Assembly (NCBI GenBank): GCA_043228905.1
Contig: JBHGNT010000018.1
Span: forward strand, 10,974,001-11,038,000
Source of the DNA: Azolla caroliniana
Lineage: Eukaryota; Plantae; Polypodiophyta
Length of the DNA stretch: 64,000 bases
Direction: 5' to 3'
Part shown: positions 2,233 through 27,145 of the stretch, piece by piece
Layout: every line of letters begins with the position of its first letter
Numbering within the stretch: position 1 is the stretch's first letter
The notes under the pieces: generated by a model
What the model was told of the DNA's origin: nothing
Seen by the model: only the letters and a program-made list of their open reading frames with translations
Databases searched by the model: none
Position numbers and translations under genes: made by a program

Positions 2233-3340
2233 TTACAGAACTGTCATACTTCCGCACACGTATTCTTCTACATTACTCATGAACCGGCGAACCACTCTGA
2301 TTGCATATTTGATATCTGGTCGTGTGCATACCATTGCGTACATCAAACTTTCGATGGCAGAGAGGCATATGGAATCTTCATCATTTCTAACTTCTCTATC
2401 TTTTTCTTCGGGCTTTGTTTTCCGGACAACTTGCAATTTGTCAGAAGTGTCGACCCGATCAGCCTAGCACCCGACATGTTGAATCGTGGGAGCACCTTCA
2501 TCACGTACTTCTCCTATGACAGCCACAATAGCTTCTTCGTCTGGTCCCAGACTCTGTGCATCCCCAGTCTCTGTCTCCCCGGACCCATATCTTTCATTGC
2601 GAATGACAAGATCAATGCCTTCTTTAGCACTCCAATTTTGGTTTGGTCCGGTCCGACTATTAGCCTGTTGTCCATGTACAGTAGGAGTATTAGAAAATCT
2701 CCTCCATCAAACTTCTTCACAAACACACAGTGGTCACCCTATGTCTTGTGGTATCCCTGGTCAGTCATGAAGGAGTCGAACTTCCGGTACAATTTCCGGG
2801 GAGCTTGCTTTAATCCGTATAAGCTCTTCTTCAACCGGCACACTAGGTGCTCCTTGCTTTTCTTGATGAATCCTTCCGGTTGTTGCATGTAGATCTCCTC
2901 CTTTAGGTCTCCATGAAGGGACATCGCCTTCACATCTACCTATTCAACCTCGAGGTCCATGCTTGCCGTTATGTTCAGCACGGTCCGGATGGATGTCATC
3001 TTTACTACCGGGGCAATGCACTCATTTCTTCTGCTGGAATCCCTTCACCACAATGCGGGCTTTGTACCTTTGTCGATTTCCGGCATCTCCTAGTTTCAGC
3101 TTGTACACCCACTTGTTCCGGAGCACTCTCTTTCCTTTCGGCAGCTCCGTCAATTCATATGTGTGGTTCTCATGCAGGGAATCCATTTCATCCTACATGG
3201 CACTCAAGCACTTGCGGTTGTGGGTGTCCCTCATTTATTCTTCAAGGCTTTTCGGCTCCCCCTCGTCGGTAAGTAAAACATGCTTTGCATCCGGAAATCT
3301 ACGAGGCATCCTCCTCTCTCTTGGAGGGTATCTCCGTCCT
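2233..3340 (-). pseudogene. Internally deleted copia RT fragment related to family B
   Basis: LHGDLKEEIYMQQPEGF, LKKSLYGLKQAPR, SLMYAMVCTRPDI; collinear with 52700-53830 but with several deletions. Confidence 0.9.
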
Positions 3341-3383
3341 TGGTTCTTGTCAAAGTTAATAAACAAGAGCTTTGACAAAACCA

Positions 3384-6300
3384 GTTACACCGGATAGCAA
3401 CAGAGAATAAACACAGGTTTAATGGAAGCTTAGAATACACAATTCACGGGAGAGACAGAGAGAGCAGAACAATAAACTTAATTCAAAATAATAACAATTT
3501 GTACATACAATGTGCTCAGTGAGCACTTTTATACAAGTCCATGAAGGATTGACAGAAGTACTGACATGTACTTCAATGCTCATACGAGCGATTGACACTG
3601 ACTCCTAAAAATATACATACATACTAGGCTAGATTCGTAGGCCTCTAACAGCCAACCGGTTACAATCCGATCCGGCTCTTTGATCTAGCTCCTGGTTTCG
3701 GACACTGATCCGATTCTTCATTCCGGACTCCGATCCGATTTAGCTTCTCCTCTCAACACTCCCCCTCAAGCTCAACTTGAGGTCGGATCGCAGTGTCAGT
3801 GTTCATGTCGGCCGGTTCTTTCCTCCGGCTCCACCTAGAGTCCTCCTGCTTGGCTCGCACTCCTCGTTCGGTCTAGTTCGTCTTCCCGCGACGCTTCCGC
3901 TTCCGCGCACCTTGACCTTCTTAGTCGGCATGTCTACTCAGAAGGCTCATCTCAGTTCCTTTGCTATTGCGACTCCAGCGCGTCTCGACTCGTCGGTTCC
4001 TCCGTGTTGGTGTCAGCTTCCACTGCCTCTTTGTCCATTTGGCCTTCAGTTGATCCAGATCCTCCGAATCCAACACCACTTTCGAATCGGGTGACTCCGA
4101 TTTGTTCCAGCTCTTGTCCGAATTGGCTGTCTCCAATTCGTCCTCAATCTTCAGGCCCATTACCACATCAGACCATGTCCGGGTCTTGGTCTTCTGGTCG
4201 GCTCTGTCCTTCTTGACTCTGCCGCCATCGCCACTTGTTCTGACTTTACTGAATGTGCCGATTTCTACAGTCGACTCGACTTCCTTTTCCTTTTTCTTCT
4301 TGTCTCCCCCTGTTTTCCCGCTTTTCGTTCCGGTTCCAATTCTCCCCATATCAGTACCGGTTCTCCCCCTCAAGTGTGGCATATCGAGATTCTAAAGACC
4401 AAGCATCTCCTAAAAATGATGCAACTTGTTGGTCCCAAGGGCCTTCGTGAAGATGTCAGCAACCTGTCGATCCGTCCGGACATACCAGAGTTCTACTTCG
4501 CCGTTGAGGACCCGCTCGCGCACAAAGTGATAATGCACTTCTATGTGCTTCGTCCGAGCATGGAACACAGGGTTCTTGACTAGCTACATGCTGCTCATGT
4601 TGTCGTAGTAGATCAGGATTGGAGTTGGAACTTCGATCTAGACGTCTTGTAGTAGCCGCCGAAGCCAGATGGCTTCACAGGTGGCAACGGTAGCGCTCCG
4701 ATATTCAGCCTTAGTGTTCGATAGGGCCACTGTCAGCTGCTTTTTGCTGCTCCACACAATAGCCGCGCTACCTAGAGAGAACATAAATCTGAAAGTGGAT
4801 CACCGATCAGGCGCATCTCCGGCGTAGTCGGCATCTGTATATCCAACTAGCTTCTCGGTTATACCACGTCGATATAACAATCCCCGGTCCTTAGTGCCAC
4901 TAACATACCTCAGTATTCGGTGCACCTAATGAAGGTGCTCCATAGTCGGCTTTTGCATGAACTAACTTATCGCTCTAACCGGATAGCTAATGCCGGCTCG
5001 GGTGATCGTCAAATAAATAAGGCTTCCAACAATTTGTTGGAACCATTTCTCATCGTAGGCCGGTCCGGAGTCGGGACAAAGCTTTAGGTTCTGGTCCAAG
5101 GGTGTGGAGACTAATTAGGAATCGGTCATGCCGAACTTGTACAACATATTCAGCACATAGTGTCACTTAGAGAGCAATATGTTGTCAGGGGTGTGGATCA
5201 CTTCGATCTCGAGGAAGTAATGAAGGTCCCCCAAGTCCTTCATTTTGAATGCATCCGAATGTTGGGACTTCACTTGGCCGATTTCAGCGAGGCCGGGTCC
5301 GGTGATGACTAAATCATCCACATATAGTAGGATACATACCCGACCTTTCGGACCTTTCCGGATGAACAATGAAGAGTCGGACTTGGAGGCCGCAAACCCC
5401 ATCTTACGTAACCAGTGTGTGATTTTTGGGTTTGAAGCACCGGGAGCTTGCTTCAGGCCGTAAAGAGACTTCTTGAGTCGGCAAAATGCCAACTTGTTCA
5501 TCTCTGACAAAAATCCGGGGGGTTGGATCATGTAGAGCTATTCTTCAAGATCGCCTTGAAGAGATGCATTCTTCAAATGCATTTGGTGAAGATGGCATCC
5601 CCTTGCCGCATGAACCGCTACACCACACAAACCGTCATATTCGCTACAGGAGGGAAGGTCTCGTCATAGTCAATTCCATTGGTCTACGCATATCCTTTGG
5701 CCACTAACCGGGCCTTGTACCAGTTGACTGAACCTTCAGCATTATACTTCACCTTGTACACCCACTTGCAACTGATCGGTTTGCAATGTTGGGGAGGGTC
5801 AACCAGGTCCCATGTGTCATTGGCATCAAGTGCCCACATCTCTTCTTCCATTGCGGCACGCCAATTTGCATCCTTTGTGGCTTCTACGTAACTCTCCGGC
5901 TCACGCACCTCCGCCACTTTCGTCATGTATGCATAGTGATGTTGCATGTACTCATTATATCCATACCTTTTTACGGGGTTCTTCTGGCGGGTGGATCCGC
6001 GTAACTTCTCATTAGCCGATTTCAAGGCCCTCTTGGTCGGATCAAACTTCATCTCCGATGGTCTATCTTTGTTCTATCCGGAGTCGGATTGCTCCTATCC
6101 GACTCGTCTCTGTCAGTGGTGTATTCGGGCATGTTCTTCTTCCCCTTCTCTTTGTGTGTGAACCGTCCCCTTGGTACCTTACGCGGGGAGAGCACAATTG
6201 AGTCTCCACTACTCGCCGACTCTTCATTTGACTGGTAATTCCGACTTAGTCGCTCATTCCACTCACTTAGTCGGAATGAGATCAGAGTCTCATCTAGAGT

Positions 6301-7037: not shown

Positions 7038-7671
7038 TGTCGTGCCTTTCGGCTCCGGATCGTTGCGTGAGTCGGGTGGGAACCGCCGAGGTTTTTGACT
7101 AGGAGGAAGAGGAATACAACTTAAGGCTAGTTATGAATAGTGGAAAGAGAAGTAAGATAGCAATCTCGTGAATCCCACGAATGTATTAGATTGATCAATC
7201 CTTGTATATTAATCAACAACCTTATACATATTTCTCTCCTCCTTATATAAAGATGGAAGAGGCTAAGCATGGCTTCATGCTTTTTCACCAAAAGTGTCCA
7301 TGCACACTAAATGTGCATGTGATGCTTTGTCATTTCCTAAGTATAGGGCTCATGCACGCTAGATGTGCATGAGTCACTTTTAATGTCACGTGTAAATAAA
7401 ATATTCACACCCTAAAGAATACATGATTTTTACCTTTTAATAAAGGTATGTGTAAATAAAGGTCTTATACATATTAAATCTATATGTATAACACTAAAGA
7501 TAAGTTATTACAATGGTAAAGTTGGGGTTTATATACGTGGAGGTGCAGGGTTCGAATCCTACCCTATGCACATGATAAATGTTTTGATATATTATTTATT
7601 TATTTATATGTATCTAAAATTCGATATATTATTTTATGGTTTTCACGTAGTGTGTGGAATACACTACGACA
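7038..7671 (-). repeat. 3' LTR of gypsy C1
   Basis: TGTCGT..ACGACA termini; homologous to 58048-58881; purine tract adjacent at 7672-7688. Confidence 0.88.
7503..7570 (+). promoter_or_regulatory. tRNA-like A/B-box module inside LTR (antisense to element)
   Basis: caatggtaa followed by GGTTCGAATCC at 7549-7559, tRNA-like spacing. Confidence 0.6.
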
Positions 7672-8229
7672 CTCGTCCCCTCCGAACCCGCACATCCTCC
7701 GGTATGTGCCGAAGTTCTCGATTCCTCATATCCGTCTTCACCCAAAGCTTCCTCCGATTCTCCCCTTATGTCGACTATGAGTTGTAATTCACTTTCTTCG
7801 CTTCCTGCATCACCGTGGTCTTCGTCCGATTGCTCCTCGTTGTCGGCCTTGGCTTGGATCACATAGGGTTTGTCGTTGGTCCGCTTCTTGAAAATCTATG
7901 CACATGATAAATGTTTTGATATATTATTTATTTATTTATATGTATCTAAAATTGGATATATTATTTTATGGTTTTCACGTAGTGTGTGGAATACACTACG
8001 ACACTCATCCCCTTCGAACCCGCACATCCTCCGGTATGTGCCGAAGTTCTCGATTCCTCATATCCGTCTTCACCCAAAGCTTCCTCCGATTCTCCCCTTA
8101 TGTCGACTATGAGTTGTAATTCACTTTCTTCGCTTCCTGCATCACCGTGGTCTTCGTCCGATTGCTCCTCGTTGTCGGCCTTGGCTTGGATCACATAGGG
8201 TTTGTCGTTGGTCCGCTTCTTGAAAATCT
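7566..8229. repeat. 332-bp tandem duplication spanning LTR start, PPT and INT 3' end
   Basis: 7566-7897 is nearly identical to 7898-8229 (duplicate ORFs at 7566/7898 and 7654/7986). Confidence 0.95.
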
Positions 8230-12915: not shown

Positions 12916-15900
12916 TGTTACCGCTTAGGAACATGGTCTGCGGTCAGTCCTTCGACCTAGACCTCCAAGTGGTTGTGGAACAATGAATAGGCATCTATGC
13001 GTAATGCGTAGGGGAATGTTCCTTGTAAACTATCATCGTATAAGGGAGATGGCTACAACCGACTCCTTAGCAATGGTTACACTTACGTTCTTACACGCTC
13101 AAGTATTCCAGACATACAATAGATTAGCCGTAGCTATACACAGACTTTCAGAGAAGATAGAATTCTATTATGATACGTTCCTTTACATTCCAAAATTACA
13201 CGCCCCTCTATCAGAGGTTTTCTGCCCTTTATATACGCAGGGTCTATTTAGCCGTTCACGCTTCCTGCGTGAACCGTTACATGTGTTATGATCTTATATT
13301 ATTTCTTATTCTTACGCTCTTGTCCGTCGGTTACTATTCCGGCGGACAACATCATGACGACTGCCACACAGACTCCCCAGTCCGTGACAAATGCCGTCTT
13401 TTCTTGGTCTTCGGGATGCATGCGTACCTGGTTATACCCACTGAAGCCATCTAAAAAACTGTACATCTCATGTCCCGCGACGGCGTCTAGTACGCTATCA
13501 ATGAAGGGTAACGGAAATGCGTCCGTAATGGTTACGGCGTTTAATTTTCGGTAATCTACGCATACCCATATTTTGCCGTTTTTCTTTGGAACGACCACTA
13601 TCGAGCTTAACCATGTCGCTTGTTTAACTGACCGTATGAACCCCGCCTTCAGGAGCTTGTCAATTTCTTCTTCCACGCGGGTCGCGTAGTTCGGGTTCAT
13701 GCGGTAGCGGCGATGCTGGACGGGTTTTGCGTCTGTTGCTAAATTGATCTTATGGTGATAGAACTTGGGATCTAACCCCTTCATGTTCTCGTGAGCCCAA
13801 GCGAACACATCTTTATATTTCGTGAGTAGTGCGATCATCGTGTTTCTCTGGTCCGACCTTAATTCCTTTGTGATAGAGAGAAAACGGGGTTCCAACTCCG
13901 TACCCACATTTACTTCTTCCAGGGCGGAAGCGGTGGCTCTGGGTTTGGTTCGTAAGCCTCGTCGTGGAGAATAGTGGTCGTGCCATATCCTGCCGTGGTT
14001 GCGATGACATCGATTTCGAACAACGGAATGATCCGTGGGTGCTCATCTAGATATGCCTCTAATTCTGCATCCTCCACCCCAGCCAACATATTTATATCTT
14101 CTCTGTATAATGGTGTTATACCCTTGGGTTGTGGCGTGCTTCCTTCCGTAGGTACGCGAACCTTGGTGCGTCGGTGTCGGAAATTGATACACTTGTGTTG
14201 CCAACTCTGCTTGATATTTGTTGCCCGAAGCCATGGTCTGCCCAGAAGCACTGGGTACGCCCTTGGGGTGTCCAAGGCGAGGACGATAGCCGAGAAGTCG
14301 AAGCGATGTCCGCCCACGATAATGCCTATTTTGCGAATTAACCCCAATGGTCGTACTGAGCGGGTATCTACCAGTCAGAGCCAGAATGGGCAAGCCTACC
14401 ATTCTGAAATGCCTAACTGCTCGCAAGTTTTCGCGCTAATTACATTGACGCCTGAGCCGCCATCGATTATGCATCCAGGAATTTCCTGTCCATGTAATAT
14501 TAATGTAATAGCCGGGTTGTGCTGATCCACTACCGACGGTCCGTTGCTAATGTCTGTTAGGTTTGTAGCGACGCTAACCCCGGGTATGCCTGTCACCCGT
14601 TCTTCCATGGTCTGGGGGAAGCGTGGAACTAGCTGCAGCAGTTTCTACATGGTTAACGTTATCTCACAGCCTGCTAATGCTTGCCAAATGGGGTCCGGGA
14701 CCTGTCCTTCGTCCTCTCCTCGCTCCCTCGCGTTCGCGGACTCCTTCCGCATGCGCTCTATATTGGTCGCATTTGCTTTTTCCACCTATGCCTGGGCTTG
14801 TCATCGTGGATTCGCATATTGCACTCCACTCCGGAATGCCCCGAGTTCAAGCAAATCGTGCACTGGATTGCTTGACGAAACAGGCGTTCCTCGTACTGGG
14901 GTAACGCTTGTCGTAAGGAGGACATAGAAAACCTTTCCTCCTCGTCGTCCAACTCGAGCTGTAACGCTCGTTCAATGACCATATCCGTTGTTTTCCCTTT
15001 TCATGCTATTGTTGTAGAGCGTTGCCTGGATGGGTCGGCGTAATGCTGCCAGAAATGTTTCTCGAGCCTCGTCCTCCGTGGGGCTCCGTTCTAGTTTCCG
15101 CCATAGATTTTGGAAACATAAGCTGAAATCTGCGATCGTCTCGGTCGACAATTGCTTAATCGTGTAGAACTGTCCAAGGATTTCGCGATGTGGAACCCTC
15201 CGATGGAAGAACCGCAAGAAAACAGACTGCAGCTGATCGAAGGTTGTGATTGCTGGTAAATCCATCTGGGAATACCAAAACGCCGCTTGCCCATCCTATG
15301 TTAACCCGAACTCTGTGATTTTCGACTGGTGCGCTACCGCCTCCGAAAGGCTCTACGCCATGTGGTTCGCATTCCAGACATTAAGGAACATGCGAATATT
15401 GGTTGCGGCGTCGGTTTCATCGTTAAAGCGGGGGTAGGCAAAGGCCATGCTGGGGGCTACGACAGGTCAGGAAAGACCACAGGGTGGCTGTGGTGAGCGT
15501 ACTCCCCGCGTCTCGTCTAGGTATTTGGATAGCGAAGACTCACCTTTGTAATCACGGTAGGTAGTACTGAGGTTGCTGAGGCGAGGCTTTTGCCGTGCGC
15601 GTTCTTCTGCCTGGCGTGTGACGAACCTTATTATTGGCCGGTCTTGTCGTGTTGGTTCTCTGGGGCGTCTGCGGCTAAACATCCATTCGTCGTTGCTCGT
15701 CTGTGAGAAGACACAAATCACGAAGCGTGCCAAAAGTGTTACCGCTTCGGAACACGGTCTGTGGTCAGTCCTTCGACCTAGACCTCCAAGTGGTTGTGGA
15801 ACAACGAACAAGCATCTATGCGTAATGCGTAGGGGAATGGTCCCTGTAACCTATCAGCGTATAAGGGAGACGACTACAACCGACTCCTTAGCAATGGTTA

Positions 15901-16172
15901 CACTTACGTTCTTACACGCTCAGGTATTCCAGACATACAATAGATTAGCCGTAGCTATACACAGACTTTCAGAGAAGATAGAATTCTATTATGATACGTT
16001 CCTTTACATTCCAAAATTACACGCCCCTCTATCAGAGGTTTTCTTCCCTTTATATACGCAGGGTCTATTTAGCCGTTCACGCTTCCTGCGTGAACCGTTA
16101 CATGCGTTATGATCTTATATTATTTCTTATTCCTACGCTCTTGTCCGTCGGTTACTATTCCAGCGGACAACA
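12916..16172 (-). mobile_element. Athila-like gypsy family E copy 1: LTR-PBS-gag-PR-partial RT-LTR (internally deleted)
   Basis: LTRs 12916-13351 and 15737-16172 (TGTT..AACA); TSD aaccg/caccg; knuckle CTICLNSGHSGVEC; PR IIDGGSGVN; RT VVVPKKNGK..CVDYRKLN..SFLDGFSGYNQ. Confidence 0.92.
15718..15732 (-). promoter_or_regulatory. Primer binding site of E1 (TGGCACGC.., tRNA-Arg-like)
   Basis: TGGCACGCTTCGTGA begins 4 nt inside the 5' LTR end, upstream of gag; tRNA identity is from memory. Confidence 0.7.
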
Positions 16173-19100
16173 CACCGCAGGACGTGGGCCACATTAGAGA
16201 AGCTAAAGGGGAAGTACTGGTGGTCGGGACTATACCGGGACGTGCATCGGTTCGTGAGGACTTCCAGTGGATGGTGGATCTGGTGACGATGTCGATGGGG
16301 GTAGGGCAGATGTGGTATCTGGTGCTGGCTCGGGAGGACCTGACGAACCAGGTGGAAGGCCGAGCGTTGCAGAACAAAACGACCGCGACCATGTGCCGAT
16401 TTCTAATCGAAGAATTGGTATGCCGGTACGGGTGTGTAGGTAAGATTGTGGCCGACCGCGGAGAATTGGACGCGCAAGAGGTGGAAGAGTTGTTTGACCG
16501 GCTAGGGATTAAACTCTCGCTCACCACAACGTACAATCCGGAGGCTAACAAGAAGGTGGAACACGGACACGGGCCGATCGTCAAAGCATTAGTACAGGTG
16601 TGTGGAGGCCAAGTCGGGAACTGGCCGCGGCTCTTACCCTATGCGTTGTGGGCGGACCGAAGTATGCACAATTCGGTAACCGGGTTCATGCCGGCAGAGC
16701 TAATGTACGGGTAGAAGCCGATCATGCCAACCGAGCAAACAATCTCCTCATGGGCCACGGTGGACTGGAAAGATAAGATGAGCCAGGAGGAGCTGTTAGT
16801 GGCACGGATTCGGCAGCTGGATGGAAGACCGGAGGACGTGGACCGAGCCGTGGAGAAGCTACGGGTGGCAAAGGTAAAGAACAAAGGACGGTTCGACTGA
16901 GACCGAAGAAGATCGAGGAAGGCGACTAGGCTCTAGTGTATGACAACAGCCTCGACAACCAGCACAGGGCAACGCGGAAGTTTGCAAGAAGTTGGTTCGG
17001 GCCTTATGTGGTGACAAGCGCCAACGATAATGGGACCTACCATCTCGCGGAGCTCGAGGGACAAGGATGGCGGTACTGATGGCGGGGAAAAGGATCAAAG
17101 CATTCAAAAAGCGCCATGAGGCTGAACTAGACCCGGACGACTTGGATGACAACAACGACCGGCTCGAAACGGATGTCAATCCGAAAGACAAAGGATAAGC
17201 GTGGGCCGGTCTTCCCCGGCAGGAGTCTAATTTTGGCACATACCGGTGGATGCGTGGTTAGGGGGGGTCGGATGTCGTGGAGAAAACCGTCCCTAGGCGG
17301 AAACCGGGTATAACGTGCGTAAACCGGCCCTTACACGTGGGCACAAGTTTTGTTGTATAGTACGTAGATAGGTACAAGTCGGCTGAGGTGAAATCCTAGG
17401 TAGCACGCATTCATTAGGGAGAAAATCGAAGCGTATCCCTATCCGAAAGGACAGGGAATGAACATGATGTAACGGGTGATAACGACCTCCCTCCTTGGGC
17501 TATAAAAGAGAGGGAGAGGTATTGTAAAAGGGGGAAAAAAAATGCGTTTTGTGGAGGACGAAGTGCTGCTAGACTGGAACCGAGCTCTTCTCCTCTGTAG
17601 TCCCCATAGTCGTTCTGTGCAGGTTTTCATCAGGCCGACTCTGCTCCGTGGAATGCCCGAGTGCTTCCGATAGAGTCTCCATCTCGCGTTCTGTGTGTGT
17701 GTGTGTGTGTGTAGGCGTCGGAGCCTATCACTCGCCGGCTTGCCGGTTGTAACTCCTTGATCGATATATATACATATACATTCGTTCTGTCTCCATTGTT
17801 CAGAGTTAGTTGCCGTACATCGGACTCCTTTCCAATGGAGTGCAACGGAGGATAAGGCCTATGAGGCACTTAAGATAATGCTCACACAGGCTCTCGTCGT
17901 ACAACCACCAGTTTGGGCAAAGCCATTCCACGTGTTCGTCAACGCCTCGGACACAACAATAGGAAGCGCACTAATGCAGCTCACCGAACCAAACTGGTAC
18001 AGGCCAGTATACTACACGAGTCGTAAATTGTCAGCAACAGAGCGTAACTATTCCACAACTGAGCGGGAGGCACTAGGGATGATATATAGCATCAATAAAT
18101 TCTGACACTATTTATTAGGAAGGAAATTCACGTTCCACGTGGATCATTCGACATTATTGTATTTGGTAGAGAAACAAGCCTTGACAGGGAAATTGGCGCG
18201 GTGGATGTTGCTGCTCCAGGAATTCGATTTCGTAATTCAGCACCGACCAGGAATGCAACACGCAGTGGCGGATTTTTTGAGCAGAATCGAGAATGGAGAA
18301 ATAGTACAGAAAGACGACGACGATTTTCCGGACGCCGACATCTTGCGAGTAGCGACATTTGCAGAAAAAACGGAATCCACCGTTCCGGACCGATGGCTTA
18401 TGGAAATGGCGTACTTTTTAACTACATGACTGCCTCCACCACAATTACGCACGGACGAGAAGAAACGACTAGCTGTCCGAAGCCGTCACTTTTGCCTCGT
18501 CGAAGGCATTTTATATCATAAAGGAAGTGACGGCATTTGGCGACGTCGGGTACGGGAGGCACACTGCGGCACAGCAGGCGGCCATTATGCGGGCGACGTG
18601 ACAGCCCGGAAAGTATGGCAGGCGGGCTTATGGTGGCCAACAACGCAAAAGGACGCATGTATTGTAGAAAGTGTGATTTGTGTCAGCGGATGGGTCAGCC
18701 CGCGGAGGACGCAAGGATGCCACACTAGCCCGTATTACCGCTAGACCCCTTCCAAAAGTGGGGATTGGATTTTGTAGGGCCCTTCACACCAGCGGCGGCC
18801 CCTACGGGCAACAAATACATTTGGTTGCCACGGATTACTGCACTAAATGGGTAGAAGCAAAGGCACTACGTGAAAATACTTTGGCCGTCACAGCCAAATT
18901 CCTTTACGAGCACATCTGGTGCCTGTTCGGCTGTCCGATTGAGCTCATCAGTGACCAAGGGAGTCACTTTCTCAATACGGTGGTTCGGGAACTAACAGAT
19001 CATTACGCCGTAGTCCACAAGAAGAGCACGCCATATTATCCACAAGCGAATGGATTAGCAGAATCCACGAACAAGACATTACAGACCATTTTGAAGAAAA

Positions 19101-21984
19101 CCGTCAATGAAAATGGAACGGACTGGGATACCAAACTACAGAGTGCGTTATGGGCGTACAGAACTAGTTACAAAACAAGCATACAGTCAACACCGTTCTG
19201 ACTAGCGTTTGGATTGGAGGTTGTGATGCCGGTCGAATTTCAGGTACCGAGTTTGCGCATTCAGGTACAGAACCGATTATCAAAAGCCAAGTCGGAGGAG
19301 GTACGGCTCTACTAGGTCCTCGAACTAGGGGAAAAACGCGTCCACAACATGGCTGTGTTGGAACAGGAACAACGACGGCATAAAGTGTTTGTGGATCGAC
19401 ATCGGAACGCAAGGGAAAAGGAGTTCGCTGTGGGCCGAGCAGTGCTAGTTTTTCAAACGCGCATGGGCCATATGCTGGTGAAGTTACGTTTCCGCTAGAC
19501 CGGCCCATACTGGATAATTGGAGCGGAACAAGGCACGTTCCAACTAGGAACGCTAGCTGGGGAAGAATTACGACAAAAGGTGAATGGATTTCGGCTCAAA
19601 CCTTACCTGGGCCCTACGCCACCTAACCCATTCACCCCCGAATGGGACAAAGCCGGGGAATCCTCAGCGTAAAATGGACAGCCCCATTTGTACTATAATG
19701 TAAAAATAGGTGGTAAATAACCGTTACAAAAAATAATAAAAGAAGAAGAAAAAGAAGAAGATAGTGACTATTAAAACGACTAAAGGCATGCACAAACTCC
19801 TAGTTCAAGAACACGCGGCACCACGATGGCTCATCGCCCATTGAACCCTAAGCCACAAAAAGAAGGAAACAGAAGATTTTCTGCACAAAGCAGAAACCCG
19901 TCTTCTAGCTATCATCGCTCCCATCGCTCCTCCTCCTCACCTTCTTCCCCATCCTATCTCAGAGCTCCAACTCACCACAACCAACCGTCTCCTCCCCACG
20001 AACCTACTCTGGCGATGCCGATCTTTATCTCTACTGCCCTACGCCGATGGCTCGTGGAGAAACGCCTAGATGGTTACATCCGGGTCGCATAAGCACCTCC
20101 GCACCTGGACGCCATGGACATCGCCAACAGGCTTAACATCGACACGGTCACCAACTCTTCCATCCGGAAGAAGTTGGACCTATCCTCACTAGGAGAAAGA
20201 CATTTTGAAATACCTCCTGCAGAGGTGCTGCAGCGGTATTTTGGGCCATATTCCTCCTCCGCCAAGGCCTATAGAACAAAACAAATTCCGGATCCTTTCT
20301 TCCGTGAAGTTGCCAAGTTCCTGCTAGAAGTCGGTTGCGTACATGTCAACACATATGGGATGCCTAAGCAGAAAGTAGGCATCATCATCGATACCTTTGA
20401 AGGGCATGCCGTTGACTGGGGGGTTATCACAGAGCCAACGTTAAGGGAAGGCTTGCATGCGTACCAAGCAGGCAAAAAGCTCAGGCCGATCATCGAACAA
20501 TAACTTACGGTACTATTTCCACCCCGAGGCCTGCTAGCACCGCGACCCAGCTAACCCACGACCCCGCCCCGATCCGCAAAACGTAGGTTAGCAGAGTTAT
20601 CGGCCCCAGAGTGGGAAGAAGAACCCCAACCGGCCCAGCCAGACCCAAGGACAACACCTCCTACCGACCAGCCGGACACACGGATAACGCAGGAGGAACA
20701 ACCGAGACGCTCCAGGGAAGCAGCCCTAGAACCAGACATCGAAACACGACGGGAAAGCCCCAGACCAAAACGACGCAGATTGGACAAGAAAGATGGGCGG
20801 GGGTTGGTAAAAAACGCCCCCACCGCAATAGAGACACCGACCGAAGGCGAAGGTGCCGCAACAGTGGAACCGAATACCACCTTCGAAATCATCTAGGAGC
20901 CACGACCGATTATTACGACTCAGTCCCAACGAGGGAAAGCCGTATTGACGGCGGAAAGTGAGGTTTTGGCATATCCGGATATCCCGGATACGGCCGACGA
21001 GTTCAACGCCCTCTTACAGTTCGGTACTTCTTTTGATCTCATGGAGTTCTTGGCAACACAACAGGTCAAAGCCGCCCAACGAATGGCCGAGGAGCATGCG
21101 GAACGCTAGATGATCTAGGGCGCCCTAACATAAACAACGGAGAGCGACAATGAGGACCGGCTAGCCAGGGTCGGCAGATAGAGGAATGTCGAGGTACGGC
21201 GAGTGGGGATGGAGATACCACCCTTAAACACGGCCCTAGTCGAAGTCCATCGGGAACTAGCAAAGGTCAGCACGGGCGTCAAGGAGATGGCCATAAAAAA
21301 TTAGAATGTCTGGAAGTAGGTTAAACTGACCAAAGCCGAACTGCAAAAGGCCAACGCACGCATCGCCGAGTTGGAAGCTCACACGACTACGGCGGAACAC
21401 GCAACCCCGCCACCGAACCATGTCATCGACGCTCTAAAAGAACAAATCGAAGCTCAGATCGCCATCGCCTCAAAAGCAAAAAGGGTCGTGCAGTTAGCAG
21501 AATCCGAAATTGACTGTCTTCGCGCAGAACTACACCAATCCTCAGACAGAGAAAAGGAGATATGGGCTAATGGACGAAAGGCAGTAAAAACTCTTGAAGA
21601 AAAACTAGCTACGGAGGTAGCTCAACACATCCAGACAAAGGACGACAACGCACAATTACGAGAGGACTCGAAAAAATCGGAGGCGGCAATAGCAAGACTT
21701 CGGGCCTTATTAGAAAAAAAGAAGGTATGGTTCGATGAGCAGTCGGTGGTCGAACAAGACAGAAGGCATCAGCTCGAAATCCGCCTAAACAACGAGATGG
21801 GGAAATTAGAAGAACAACATGCAAAGGAATCCCAGCTGTGGGCGGGCCTGAAGGCCACGTATGAGGAAGCGACAGCCGTTAAACAATAGGAAATCGCAAA
21901 TCTCCAGAAGTCGATGGAAGACGCTGTCGTGAAGAATGTGCTTCACGATATAAAAATGAGCTTAAATGTTGTATTTAATAATAT

Positions 21985-22172
21985 TTGAGAGACTTGAACC
22001 CACATCCTTATATACGATGTACAATGTACATACCACTAGGCTAGGCTATTTATTTGTAAAAGTGTATAATAAATGTGCTACATGATATAAGAATGAAGCT
22101 ATATATTGTATTGAGGGACTTGAACCCTCAACCTTGTATACCAAGCACCAAGCATACACCACTAAGCTGGGT
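21985..22172 (-). promoter_or_regulatory. Two tandem tRNA-like A/B-box modules in solo LTR
   Basis: Minus strand TAGCCTAGTGG..GGTTCAAGTC (22043/22000) and CAGCTTAGTGG..GGTTCAAGTCC (22169/22126); 43-nt spacing. Confidence 0.7.
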
Positions 22173-22423
22173 TAGTTATTTTAGAATGCATTTTCATCAT
22201 TATACTTATCCCATATCTATTTTCATACATAGCCATCATTCATCACATGCAATGCATGTGCGCCAAATGGCGATCATGCATTACATGCAACTCATGCATT
22301 GCATGCATGCCATGCTCCCATACATTACCATATGCATGGCAACACTTATATAAAGAGGAGAAAGGGAAAACAAGGTAAGGAATCAAGAGAGAGTGAGAAA
22401 ATAATACAATCAATTAAAGAAGA

Positions 22424-22487
22424 CTAGCTCATTGGGTGGAGAACCTCTCGTTTCGAAGTTGAGATCGTGGGTTCAAATCAAGGGTCG
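22424..22487 (+). promoter_or_regulatory. tRNA-like A/B-box module downstream of LTR TATA
   Basis: TAGCTCATTGG at 22425 and GGTTCAAATC at 22470. Confidence 0.7.
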
Positions 22488-23724
22488 ATAGAGAATGTGT
22501 TCAGTTTGCGATCGAGGATTGTAAAGTTGGTAAAATATTATATTTTTAATATACATCATGTTTATATCATATACTCTTGTTCCTTGAATCATACTTTGTC
22601 TCAATCTTCTTTCTTGAAGCATACATTGTCTCTATCTTTTATCTATGCTCATCTCTCTCTCTCGCACACACACACACATTACTCGTAACTCTTCTTCTTA
22701 CTATCCTTAACCACTCTATCATCACCATCCAAGCCTTATTAAAAGTTAAGTTTCTTCAACTCCCCTTAACCTTAGTCCCCGCGACTTCGCCGCACGAACC
22801 ACAACTACCCCGACAACGCACGCATCTGTTGCCATGCCATCACAGATAACGTGCGGATCCTTCTCCAAACAAATCGGGAGAGGTTCACAGCGCAATTGAA
22901 AATGACGTTGGACAAAGGATGGATGACATGGGCAACCCAAGCAGCGGAATTGCACACGTATCGTGCGGACTGGGAGAACCGGCGAAAAGACGGTCGAGGT
23001 TTCTATAAACTAAATGAGGAGGGCATTGCGACCGTACGGGAGGACCTAGCGCAAGACTATCGTGCGCTAGCAGACCAACACTCCGAAGAACTCGCACAGC
23101 TCTTAGATGATTTTGGTGAAAGTCAGGAGGAGCTATTTCACCAAATCACGCAGGCCGACAACATGCGCACAAACGAGGAATCCAACGCGTCACCAATTCC
23201 GGCCCCAACCGAAGAAGAGGAACCTCAGGCCCGATCACCAGAGATGATAACGAGGGAGAATAGTGGGGACCGACGAGCGGAGTTCCCCACGGGACCAGAC
23301 AGCGAAACCACTACCCCACAAGAGGTCCAGCCGCAGGAGCCCACACTATCATCAAACCACGCGGAGAACGGTGCGGACCAGGCGGAATCTCCGCCCCACT
23401 CCCAGGAATATAGAAAAACGGCCAACACCACGGAGGACGTAACAATGGAGGCAGAGTCGCAGCCGACTGCAAGCACGACAACGGCGGAGCCCAACCCACT
23501 AACTCAAGAAGAGCCCATCGTACCCGGACCACCCACACACGGCGACGACAACTCCGGGAGAAACCAACCCGCCCAAACAGAGGAGCCACACCACAATGCA
23601 CCTACAGGCCCTACATCACCTCCGGACGAGGACACCACAGCAGAGCCGAACATCCGGGCCATTTTGGAAGAAGATTAAGGGATGGGTCCGACGTGCAAAG
23701 GCACTGTCCCATAGGCGTGCCAAG

Positions 23725-24165
23725 TGTTGTCCGCCAGAATAGTAACAGACGGACAAAAGCGTAGGAATAAGAAATTATATAAGAGCATAACGCATGTAAC
23801 GGTTCACGTAGGAAGCGTTAACGGCTAATTAGACCCTGCATATATAAAGGGCAGAAAAACCTCTGATAGAGGTGCGTGTAATTTTGGGGAATGTAAAGAA
23901 ACGCCTTATAATAGAATACTATCTTCTCTGATTTTCTGTGTATAGCTACAACTAGTTCAGAGTGGGTGTCTTGATTACTTAAGCGTTGTAGTACGTAAGT
24001 GTAACCCTGAATAGGGATTCGGTTGTAGCCGTCTTCCCTTATACGTTGATAGGTTACAGGGGTTCTACCCTTACGCAATACGCTTATACACTTGTTCGTT
24101 GTTCCACACCCACTTGAGGTCTAGGTCAAAGGACTGACCGCGGACCGTGTTCCTAAACGGCAACA
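23725..24165 (+). repeat. 3' LTR of E2
   Basis: TGTTG..CAACA, TATATAA near 23841, homologous to E1 LTRs. Confidence 0.9.
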
Positions 24166-24820: not shown

Positions 24821-25460
24821 CATGACATCATGCATGTGATGAATCAAGAGAAGAATATAGAAAGCATCGATGCTCGAGAATTTAAAGAATGTGAAAGAAG
24901 ATCAAAGAACATTGTTATCCGAGGGATTAAAGAGGAGAGTGTGGAAACACCTGCATCCCTTGGAGAGGCTATTGGTGAATTTTTTAGCATGGCATTATGG
25001 TATGTCAGATGTGAATGTATTGTTGGGAATGTGTCCTCCAGTGGGAGGAGCCAATTGTTTGGGCCGAGAAGAGTCGACAGTCGAGGACAAGGAGGAGCTG
25101 ATTGTTCGGGTTGAGTACCGAGAGTCGAAGAGTCGACAATGATAATAATAATTATGGTATGTCAAATGCGAATGTATTGTTGGGAATGTGTCCTCCAGTG
25201 GGAGGAGCCGATTGTTCGGGCCGAGAAGAGTTGATAGTTGAGGACAAGGAGGAGCCGATTGTTCGGGTTGAGTACTGATAGTCGAAGAGTCGACAATGAA
25301 GTAGGGGATACATTTGTCAATATCCCATATGATGTATCAGTACAAATACATCTACGGAAAAAATATGATTGAGAGAGAGTGAGAATTGAAACAATACTGT
25401 ATGTGCCTCTATTGGTGCTAGTGATAGAGTAGAGAGGTCGAGAGAGAGTGGCGCCATAGC

Positions 25461-25560
25461 NNNNNNNNNNNNNNNNNNNNNNNNNNNNNNNNNNNNNNNN
25501 NNNNNNNNNNNNNNNNNNNNNNNNNNNNNNNNNNNNNNNNNNNNNNNNNNNNNNNNNNNN
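25461..25560. other. Assembly gap
   Basis: 100 N. Confidence 1.
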
Positions 25561-25969
25561 AAGCAAAAATACCCATAGGGGTATTCGAGTCGGAATGGAA
25601 ACTTCTTCACAGAAGGGCGGTGGCTACCATCCGATAGTGCGTCGATGTAAGTGTCCTTCAGCATGTGGCGAACGGCATGAATGCCCACAAGATGTGGCAA
25701 AAGCTGTCAAGACTATACGAAAGGAAGAACGCCCTGAATAAAACCTCATTGATGAGAAAGATCGTATGGCTGAAGTACAGAGACGGTGAGAGCATTGCCA
25801 AACACATCAACACATTCATGGGGTACGTAAATCAACTTGCCGCAACCAAGTTTTCCCTTGAGGATGCAATGCAAGCCATCCTGTTGTTGTGTACTTTATC
25901 GGACAGCTAGGAGAACCTAGTGGTCACTCTCAACACCTCGTGTCAAGAAGAGAACTTGTCTCTACAATA

Positions 25970-27145
25970 AAACCACGCAAGCTTACTTCTGGACTTTGAC
26001 CTGCCTTGAGACTTTTCTCTCCTTGGTGGGCTCCTTTGCCAGTTCCTTCCTCTGTTGATATGTTGAGTCAAGTGTGACTCCCTTGTCCTTCCTTTTGGTC
26101 TCCTCGTTCAAGATGCTTGTATGTACCGCTTGTAGAGACAAGTTTTCTTCTTGACACGAGGTGTTGAGAGTGACCACTGGGTTCTCCTAGTTGTCCGATA
26201 AAGTACACAACAACAGGATGGCTTGCATTGCATCCTCAAGGGAAAACTTGGTTGCGGCAAGTTGATTTACGTACCCCATGAATGTGTTGATGTGTTTGGC
26301 AATGCTCTCACTGTCTCTGTACTTCAGCCATACGATCTTTCTCATCAATGAGGTTTTATTCAGGGCGTTCTTCCTTTCGTATAGTCTTGACAGCTTTTGC
26401 CACATCTTGTGGGCATTCATGCCGTTCGCCACATGCTGAAGTACACTTACATCGACGCACTATCGGATGGTAGCCACCGCCCTTCTGTGAAGAAGTTTCC
26501 ATTCCGACTCGAATACCCCTGTGGGTATTTCTGCTCTATCGATTGGCTCGTACAGGTCATTGACTATGAGAAGGTCCTCCATCTTTATCTTCGAGTCTGC
26601 ATAGTTCCGAGAGTTCAGAACTATCATACATGGGAAGCCACTCACACCTCCTTCCATGCTTGCATCTCAAGGTTTGATACCAAACTATTGAGAATTGAAT
26701 CTCAAACCTGTGAGAAAAACTAATTCGGAAATAGAAAATGCACAATACACAGTGATTTACGTGGAAACCCTAAACAAGGAAAAAACCACGGGAGAACAGA
26801 TCTTCACTATACAACGGATATACAAGATGACAAGATTACAACACCCTCTCTCTACAGAGTGTAACAGTCACACAGGGCTCTTGGCATCAAACCTCACTCG
26901 GCTATGGCGCCACTCTCTCTCGACCTCTCTACTCTATCACTAGCACCAATAGAGGCACATACAGTATTGTTTCAACTCTCACTCTCTCTCAATTATATTT
27001 TTTCCCTAGATGTATTTGTACTCATACATCATATGGGATATTGACAAATGTATCCCCTACTAAACATTCTTACTATTATTATTATTATCATTGTCGACTC
27101 TTCGACTATTGGTACCCGACCCGAACAATCGGCTCCTCCTTGCTC
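25970..27145 (-). repeat. Inverted copy of copia D 5' LTR, PBS and gag
   Basis: ORFs 25665-25910(+) and 26187-26432(-) are nearly identical; Met-type PBS 26671-26682; LTR 26686-27145 mirrors 25240-25460. Confidence 0.9.

Follow-up and report, generated by a model that had tools for sequence, protein, structure and literature searches.

Elements of one clade of Ty3/gypsy retrotransposons carry, directly upstream of their 3' LTR, an inverted block resembling the 3' end of a tRNA, in the place where Ty3/gypsy elements usually, if not universally, have a polypurine tract (PPT). The block is a real and clade-wide feature, as it was present in all 8 clade elements whose sequence reaches the 3' LTR. 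The best reading, with a probability of roughly 0.6 as judged from sequence comparisons, is that a second host tRNA anneals to the minus-strand DNA at this block and primes the plus strand there, an option already raised in a preliminary description of this DNA. This would be a new variant of LTR retrotransposon replication, and the second-tRNA mechanism itself is likely but unproven.

The window analyzed here, a stretch of 64,000 nt of Azolla caroliniana DNA, contains two decayed copies of the family, E1 on the minus strand and E2 on the plus strand. The features that matter are the following (positions are those of the window):

23706..23722, plus strand: tRNA 3'-end-like 17-mer with one C fewer than a tRNA end; its sense is that of the element RNA, and the minus strand carries it as a primer binding site (PBS)
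23723..23724, plus strand: spacer of 2 nt before the LTR; 2 nt with a final G in 8/8 elements
23693..23704, no strand assigned: short hairpin, with compensatory changes in relatives, at the point where positions 58/59 of a bound tRNA would adjoin
23682..23691, plus strand: T-arm-like segment; its minus strand forms a box with complementarity to the T-loop and T-stem of the tRNA
23725..24165, plus strand: E2 3' LTR (TGTTG...CAACA), with a TATA-like box near 23841
22776..23678, plus strand: extra ORF, C-terminal part, in sense; stop just upstream of the block
19784..21930, plus strand: extra ORF, N-terminal part, interrupted by stops; start approximate
17821..19670, plus strand: E2 RNase H and integrase, with stops and frameshifts and without an archaeal RNase H
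15737..16172, minus strand: E1 5' LTR
15719..15732, minus strand: E1 5' PBS, preceded by a 4-nt spacer; the family majority has another letter at 15722
15695..15717, minus strand: hairpin and CGRRC box 3' of the E1 5' PBS, mirror of the 3' module
13352..15700, minus strand: E1 gag, protease, and truncated RT, broken
12916..13351, minus strand: E1 3' LTR, which directly adjoins RT owing to an internal deletion
17253..17272, plus strand: ordinary G-rich PPT of an unrelated Ty3 element, used as control; its LTR starts at 17273

E2 runs from RNase H and integrase through a broken sense extra ORF with an AT-rich insert to the block and the LTR. Positions 23706-23722 read GTCCCATAGGCGTGCCA and are followed by AG (23723-23724) and by TGTTG, the start of the LTR at 23725. 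With 10 purines in the 20 nt upstream of this LTR, E2 has a PBS-like inverted block and no adjoining PPT, as the preliminary description had claimed. The 5' junction of E1 reads, on the minus strand, AACA (15740-15737), CTTT, and TGGCACGCTTCG (15732-15721); the mirror relationship described earlier thus stands for the minus strand, with a correction of 3 bases to its end coordinate. The 3' copy is indeed the longer tRNA-like match, and the orientation of the LTRs agrees with the direction of gag and pol in both copies. TGGCACGC occurs at two sites only in the window, the E2 3' block and the E1 5' junction, and the chance of an exact 8-mer at this place is about 9e-5 (a rough estimate that allows 6 spacer lengths and assumes uniform base use). 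No tRNA gene was found within the window, nor any Rfam tRNA match at 23560-23860 at E-values up to 10.

The LTRs of E1 (16172-15737 and 13351-12916) are 96.1% identical, its target-site duplication matches at 4/5 positions, and its 5' LTR shares 84.2% identity with the E2 LTR. Its genes follow the order gag-protease-RT, with RT directly joined to the 3' LTR; because of the internal deletion behind this fusion, E1's own 3' junction is unusable. At the deletion point (13351/13352), a few of the bases expected for RT would coincide with the beginning of the LTR, an overlap suggestive of a microhomology jump.

Contigs from sequencing runs provided support at the level of the family. The block was covered without a dip by dozens of contigs per run in four runs, which represent at most 3 samples and 3 studies and one of which may be the source of the window. 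At 23712, one other letter was common to 66-99 contigs per run, and the window copy differs from the family majority there; at 23697, one other letter occurred in 38-87 contigs per run. In some contigs, 23712 lies at least 35 letters from the contig's own end, so that these extend into the LTR. A single contig skipped the block, among those listed. Similarly, the 5' junction (four runs, four studies) had no listed change or indel in the spacer and most PBS bases. E1 differs from the family majority at 15722 and 15716, and another letter made up 3-12% of the depth at 15724 or 15727. At 23683, 15 contigs of run X4 join the block to a different AT-rich upstream sequence, which suggests that the block is shared by other families or nonautonomous partners; one relative (L004) has an AT-rich stretch that resembles this sequence.

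Relatives were collected on the basis of their integrase, with 80 of 480 kept from a metagenome scan and 8 further loci from a scan of genome contigs. The block was found 2 nt before TGTTG in seven loci (L001, L002, L004, L044, L064, L035, and L087), which together with E2 make up the 8 elements. L001 and L002 are near-copies, and the contigs of L001, L004, and L064 each show a single, collapsed LTR; the pol of L064 is unbroken. L035, an old and decayed copy, has both LTRs on one contig. L087 is complete on one long contig, with LTRs at 2795-4436 and 14901-16555 that are 93% alike, a length of 13.8 kb, and a target-site duplication that matches at 3/5 positions. With two LTRs per contig, L087 and L035 lift the earlier reservation that the two ends had been taken from different copies. 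The contig of L087 (G001:C10, 79 kb) is binned in a bacterial genome record, where an intact plant-type retrotransposon is probably a contamination.

In a quick integrase (INT) tree of 64 rows, a subset of 108, E2 and the seven block loci all fell within one 28-row branch (SH-aLRT 95). Of the 23 DNA rows in this branch, 8 have the block. In the other 15, no more than 2.0 kb of sequence follows the integrase match, while the block-bearing loci have their junction 3.4-4.5 kb past it. An equally quick RT tree of 65 rows recovered the same clade (SH-aLRT 98), which there includes three proteins of Adiantum nelumboides (L7F22_033871, L7F22_018609, and L7F22_050043), while proteins from Riccia, pine, and Asteraceae, the latter two unlabelled, fell outside it. 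A G-rich PPT was present in three outgroup elements, namely L043, L071, and the element of the window whose LTR starts at 17273, and probably in a fourth, L055; in the other long outgroup loci, a 3' junction was looked for and none was found. The preliminary description had considered that intact relatives might carry a normal PPT; in the clade, 8/8 elements reaching the 3' LTR have the block instead. Specifically, the 20 nt before the LTR contain 9-12 purines and no adjoining G run in all 8, compared with 13-14 purines and G runs in the controls. IMG/VR yielded no relatives, either by protein or by LTR start; four pattern matches there, without a nearby retroelement, were set aside as chance. 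A search of the genome contigs with the block pattern gave 0 matches.

The 3' spacer is 2 nt in 8/8 elements and the 5' spacer 2-7 nt in 7 junctions, which is what would be expected if the CCA end sets the start of the plus strand. Read outwards from the LTR, the spacers of all 8 3' and 7 5' junctions begin with C, which would give CA-C at either end of the linear DNA.

On the sense strand, six elements that form the main subgroup share a T-stem-like GTGGG, a TTCGA-like segment, a 4-bp hairpin, a 17-mer, 2 nt, and the LTR, in this order. The 17-mer resembles the last 18 bases of a tRNA less one C. In the remaining two, L035 and L087, the extra C is kept, the hairpin lies one base upstream, and there is no box; as their hairpin sits elsewhere, they were left out of the hairpin statistic. 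Among the six rows, 93.9% of 66 cells were paired and 7 cells had changed on both sides, a result equalled by 0/500 shuffles but inflated by kinship among the rows, including the near-copies L001 and L002. A CGRRC-type box, first noticed by eye, lies 30-34 nt from the TGG in 5/5 5' modules and 6/6 3' modules of the main subgroup, and is absent from 4/4 modules of L035 and L087. At the 5' junctions, the RNA strand has the mirror layout of PBS, hairpin, and box. The main subgroup thus has one mirrored design at both ends, consisting of a primer site, a compensatory hairpin, and a box complementary to the T-loop.

The minus-strand DNA gave the same fold in 6/6 main-subgroup blocks, with the LTR-side bases free, whereas the register varied in the plus-strand RNA. 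Folding energy was ordinary on both strands (z -1.6 to +0.9) and favored neither. The polarity of wobble-type changes favored the minus strand at 4 or 5 sites to 1, which are too few to decide. When the minus strand was cofolded with the 3' half of a phage tRNA (L085), a three-way junction formed with the hairpin at the step between tRNA positions 58 and 59 (standard numbering). The cofolds reached -17 to -31 kcal/mol compared with shuffle means near -7, and 0 or 1 of 200 shuffles did as well for each of the 8 blocks; this binding test is partly circular, since the phage tRNA, a stand-in used after searches for the host's own tRNA had not yielded it, was found via a pattern built from the block. 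In L085/L086, a long intron-like stretch precedes the tRNA 3' half, and the ARAGORN prediction wrapped around the short locus, so that its 5' half may be part of the gene that follows.

The two ends have changed independently of each other. A TGG site lies 2-7 nt past the LTR in 7/7 5' junctions, but L064, L035, and L087 have another 5' PBS sequence and have retained the 3' block. The 5' PBS of L087, for instance, starts with TGGCGACTCC, unlike its 3' block. The 5' sites are presumably those of other tRNA-Arg isoacceptors, and for the 3' block we take the tRNA to be Arg-UCU. Since the 5' PBS switched while the 3' block was kept, the block appears to track an invariant molecule outside the element, and the RT seems not to be bound to one tRNA sequence.

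The position of the block, its 2-nt spacing, its conservation in the clade, its independence of the 5' PBS, the compensatory hairpin, and the mirrored layout are the observations from which we infer priming by a second tRNA. In the proposed pathway, minus-strand synthesis would begin in the usual way, from a first tRNA at the 5' PBS. RNase H would then strip the non-purine genomic RNA off the 3' site, and the exposed DNA would fold, leaving about 11 LTR-adjoining bases free as a toehold. Gag would anneal the second tRNA, presumably of the Arg-UCU type, along some 17 bases ending at position 59, with the DNA hairpin looped out at the 58/59 step and the box paired with the T-loop. RT would extend the CCA end across the 2-nt spacer and the LTR, after which removal of the second tRNA by RNase H would leave the usual 2-nt overhang for integrase. 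Several observations count against this, among them the ordinary folding energies and the lack of the box in L035 and L087. The block ends in CTA instead of CCA in L064 and L035, which would leave a tRNA primer mismatched at its second-last base. In addition, the catalytic residues of RNase H are apparently intact in relatives (P0002), and RNase H cleaves a tRNA that is paired with DNA; more speculatively, early cuts in the primer may be held off by the bulge and the three-way junction. On balance, we lean towards the wider picture of an old Ty3/gypsy clade of seed-free plants, reaching into ferns, that dropped its PPT and has both strands primed by host tRNAs from mirror modules, often with one tRNA on the RNA and a different one on the DNA.

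A possible, though doubtful, alternative is that the element's own RNA at the site mimics a tRNA in cis and acts as a non-purine primer that survives RNase H. A T-arm-like hairpin would refold while the last 10-15 bases stay on the DNA, and a cut after the CCA would allow priming as from a PPT. Such a primer would account for the fixed 2-nt spacer, tolerate the CTA ends, and require no second tRNA in the particle, and the stem can form in the sense strand. However, the changes in the outer stem give A-C mismatches in that strand (in L044 and the majority of the window family), and neither the retention of a tRNA-like block despite a changed 5' primer nor the same hairpin-plus-box layout in the 5' RNA module, on the opposite strand, would be explained. 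Element RNA takes the place of a tRNA in the tRNA-like ends of the Mauriceville retroplasmid, in first-strand initiation. Self-priming of Tf1, Tcn1, and TAR, in which element RNA replaces the tRNA primer, offers a model for such a mimic, but again concerns initiation of the first strand, whereas the odd site of the clade is where the second strand would start (accessible part of PMC6317226).

It is improbable that the block does not prime at all and instead pairs with the 5' PBS to close or dimerize the RNA, or regulates the first primer, with the plus strand starting from cryptic purines upstream. The window copy is purine-rich around 23666-23686 (longest run 9), and 8-11 bases of the 5' PBS can pair with the 3' block in the window family, L001, and L004. 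In the seven relatives, however, purine runs within 60 nt reach 3-7 at most, and if the plus strand started upstream, about 35 additional bases would remain outside the LTR, yet the 5' LTRs of E1 and L087 start with TGTTG. As no more than 5 ungapped pairs form between a copy's own 5' PBS and 3' block in L064, L035, and L087, the pairing that the preliminary description had put forward, for circularization or self-priming, is rejected as a general role. A relict PPT at 23677-23691, like that of the neighboring element, was dropped, because that element is distant in the INT tree and the same positions are not purine-rich in relatives.

Still less probable is that the template is an antisense RNA originating in the 3' LTR, on which a tRNA starts plus-strand strong-stop DNA, without any DNA-templated priming. 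The G-U wobble and the hairpin-plus-box design would fit an RNA template, and the RNase H problem would be avoided. However, an antisense transcript of the whole LTR, copackaged with the genome, would be required, and the extra ORF lies in sense. Finally, there is almost no room for a one-off inversion or chimera, which the preliminary description had also considered, or for a copy-back accident or assembly artefact: the collapsed LTRs of L001, L004, and L064 and the decay of E1 and E2 would allow for it, but the block recurs in dozens of contigs per run from 3 studies and in 8/8 clade members, the LTRs are direct repeats that in L087 lie on one long contig, and the hairpin has compensatory changes.

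With direct LTRs ending in TG...CA, a PBS after the 5' LTR, and the order gag-PR-RT-RH-INT, the clade shares these features with Ty3/gypsy elements but lacks their usual PPT before the 3' LTR. Of the target-site duplication of 4-5 bp that such elements have, E1 shows 4/5 and L087 3/5 matching positions. No chromodomain match was found in the pol of P0002 or L087, and no second RNase H family at an E-value of 0.05; about 110 aa separate RH from the INT zinc finger. As there is no archaeal RNase H, the clade does not belong to Tat; as L087 is 13.8 kb long and extra ORFs of 954 and 1161 aa lie in sense, it does not belong to Phygy or Selgy, which are short, lack an extra ORF, and have a 4-bp target-site duplication. 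The clade is thus a non-chromovirus Ty3/gypsy lineage outside Tat. Its earlier designation as Athila-like agrees with the lack of an archaeal RNase H but finds no support in Athila ORF-1, for which there was no Pfam match in the extra ORFs of L002 and L004 or the pol extension of L087, and membership in Athila is unproven. The PBS sites of the clade, which we take to be of tRNA-Arg types, would be unlike those of Athila, Phygy, and Selgy.

The comparisons that follow refer to the accessible parts of the cited papers. The ORF-1 domain is found in 16% of Athila elements, so that its absence is common in Athila too (PMC6317226). PBS types are mostly tRNA-Asp, -Asn, or -Ala in Athila, Trp in Phygy, and Ala in Selgy, while a tRNA-Arg PBS occurs in 89% of Ogre, 64% of TatIII, and 30% of Retand elements (PMC6317226). 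Plant non-chromoviruses (Athila, Tat, Phygy, and Selgy) are like the clade in having no chromodomain match, a long sequence, and an extra ORF, but no inverted 3' PBS is described for them in that part of the survey (PMC6317226). Yeast Ty3 shares the order gag-PR-RT-RH-INT, direct LTRs, a 5' PBS for a tRNA, additional pairing with the T-arm, and a primer end just before the 3' LTR (PMC5371799). Its plus strand starts from an RNase H-resistant purine fragment, and the 3' part of its bipartite PBS lies in U3 and is complementary to the tRNA on the RNA (PMC5371799). In contrast, the clade has its 3' site beyond the LTR boundary and without a PPT, and the RNA there reads in the same sense as the tRNA. 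Drosophila gypsy likewise has tRNA-Lys2 sites at both genome ends, both of which anneal the tRNA on genomic RNA, although cDNA synthesis needs the 5' site only; the second site of the clade is inverted, so that a tRNA could bind it only on the minus strand (PMC1635307). A literature search that left most subscription journals, Repbase, and large supplements outside its scope gave no description of an inverted PBS replacing a PPT, and the accessible parts of PMC11963269, PMC9289625, PMC9669667, PMC5389709, and PMC4717578 contained nothing that bears on one.

If priming by a second tRNA holds true, an abundant clade with a tRNA-type site in place of the PPT would be a natural exception to the PPT rule, and host tRNA fragments would gain a second target. 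The clade makes it possible to test how RT/RNase H discriminates a primer from a substrate, and whether tRNA priming on DNA takes place in the particle. Annotation tools that expect a PPT, or that orient elements by their PBS, will misread elements of this clade. Second-strand priming from a PPT is taken to hold generally among retroviruses and LTR retrotransposons.

The extra ORF (19784-23678 in the window, L002:1542-4406, and L004:1408-4893) lies in sense and encodes 954-1161 aa rich in coiled coils. Its C-terminal tail is acidic, conserved, and ILDIL(D/E)-like, and in most relatives its stop lies about 5-20 nt before the block. No confident Pfam family was found for it; Atlas matches of 0.86 or lower gave weak leads to the plant mobile domain. 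The integrase of L087 has a long in-frame extension, giving 2399 aa. An unrelated AT-rich repeat (21925-22775), with similar sequence in L041, splits the extra ORF of E2. Elsewhere in the window, a 334-bp tandem duplication (7564-8229) is 99% alike. Finally, inverted repeats with 98% identity lie at 25300-27142 (25562-25967 and 26130-26535; 25300-25460 and 26901-27061), around a 100-N gap at 25461-25560, and are possibly an assembly artefact or a fold-back.
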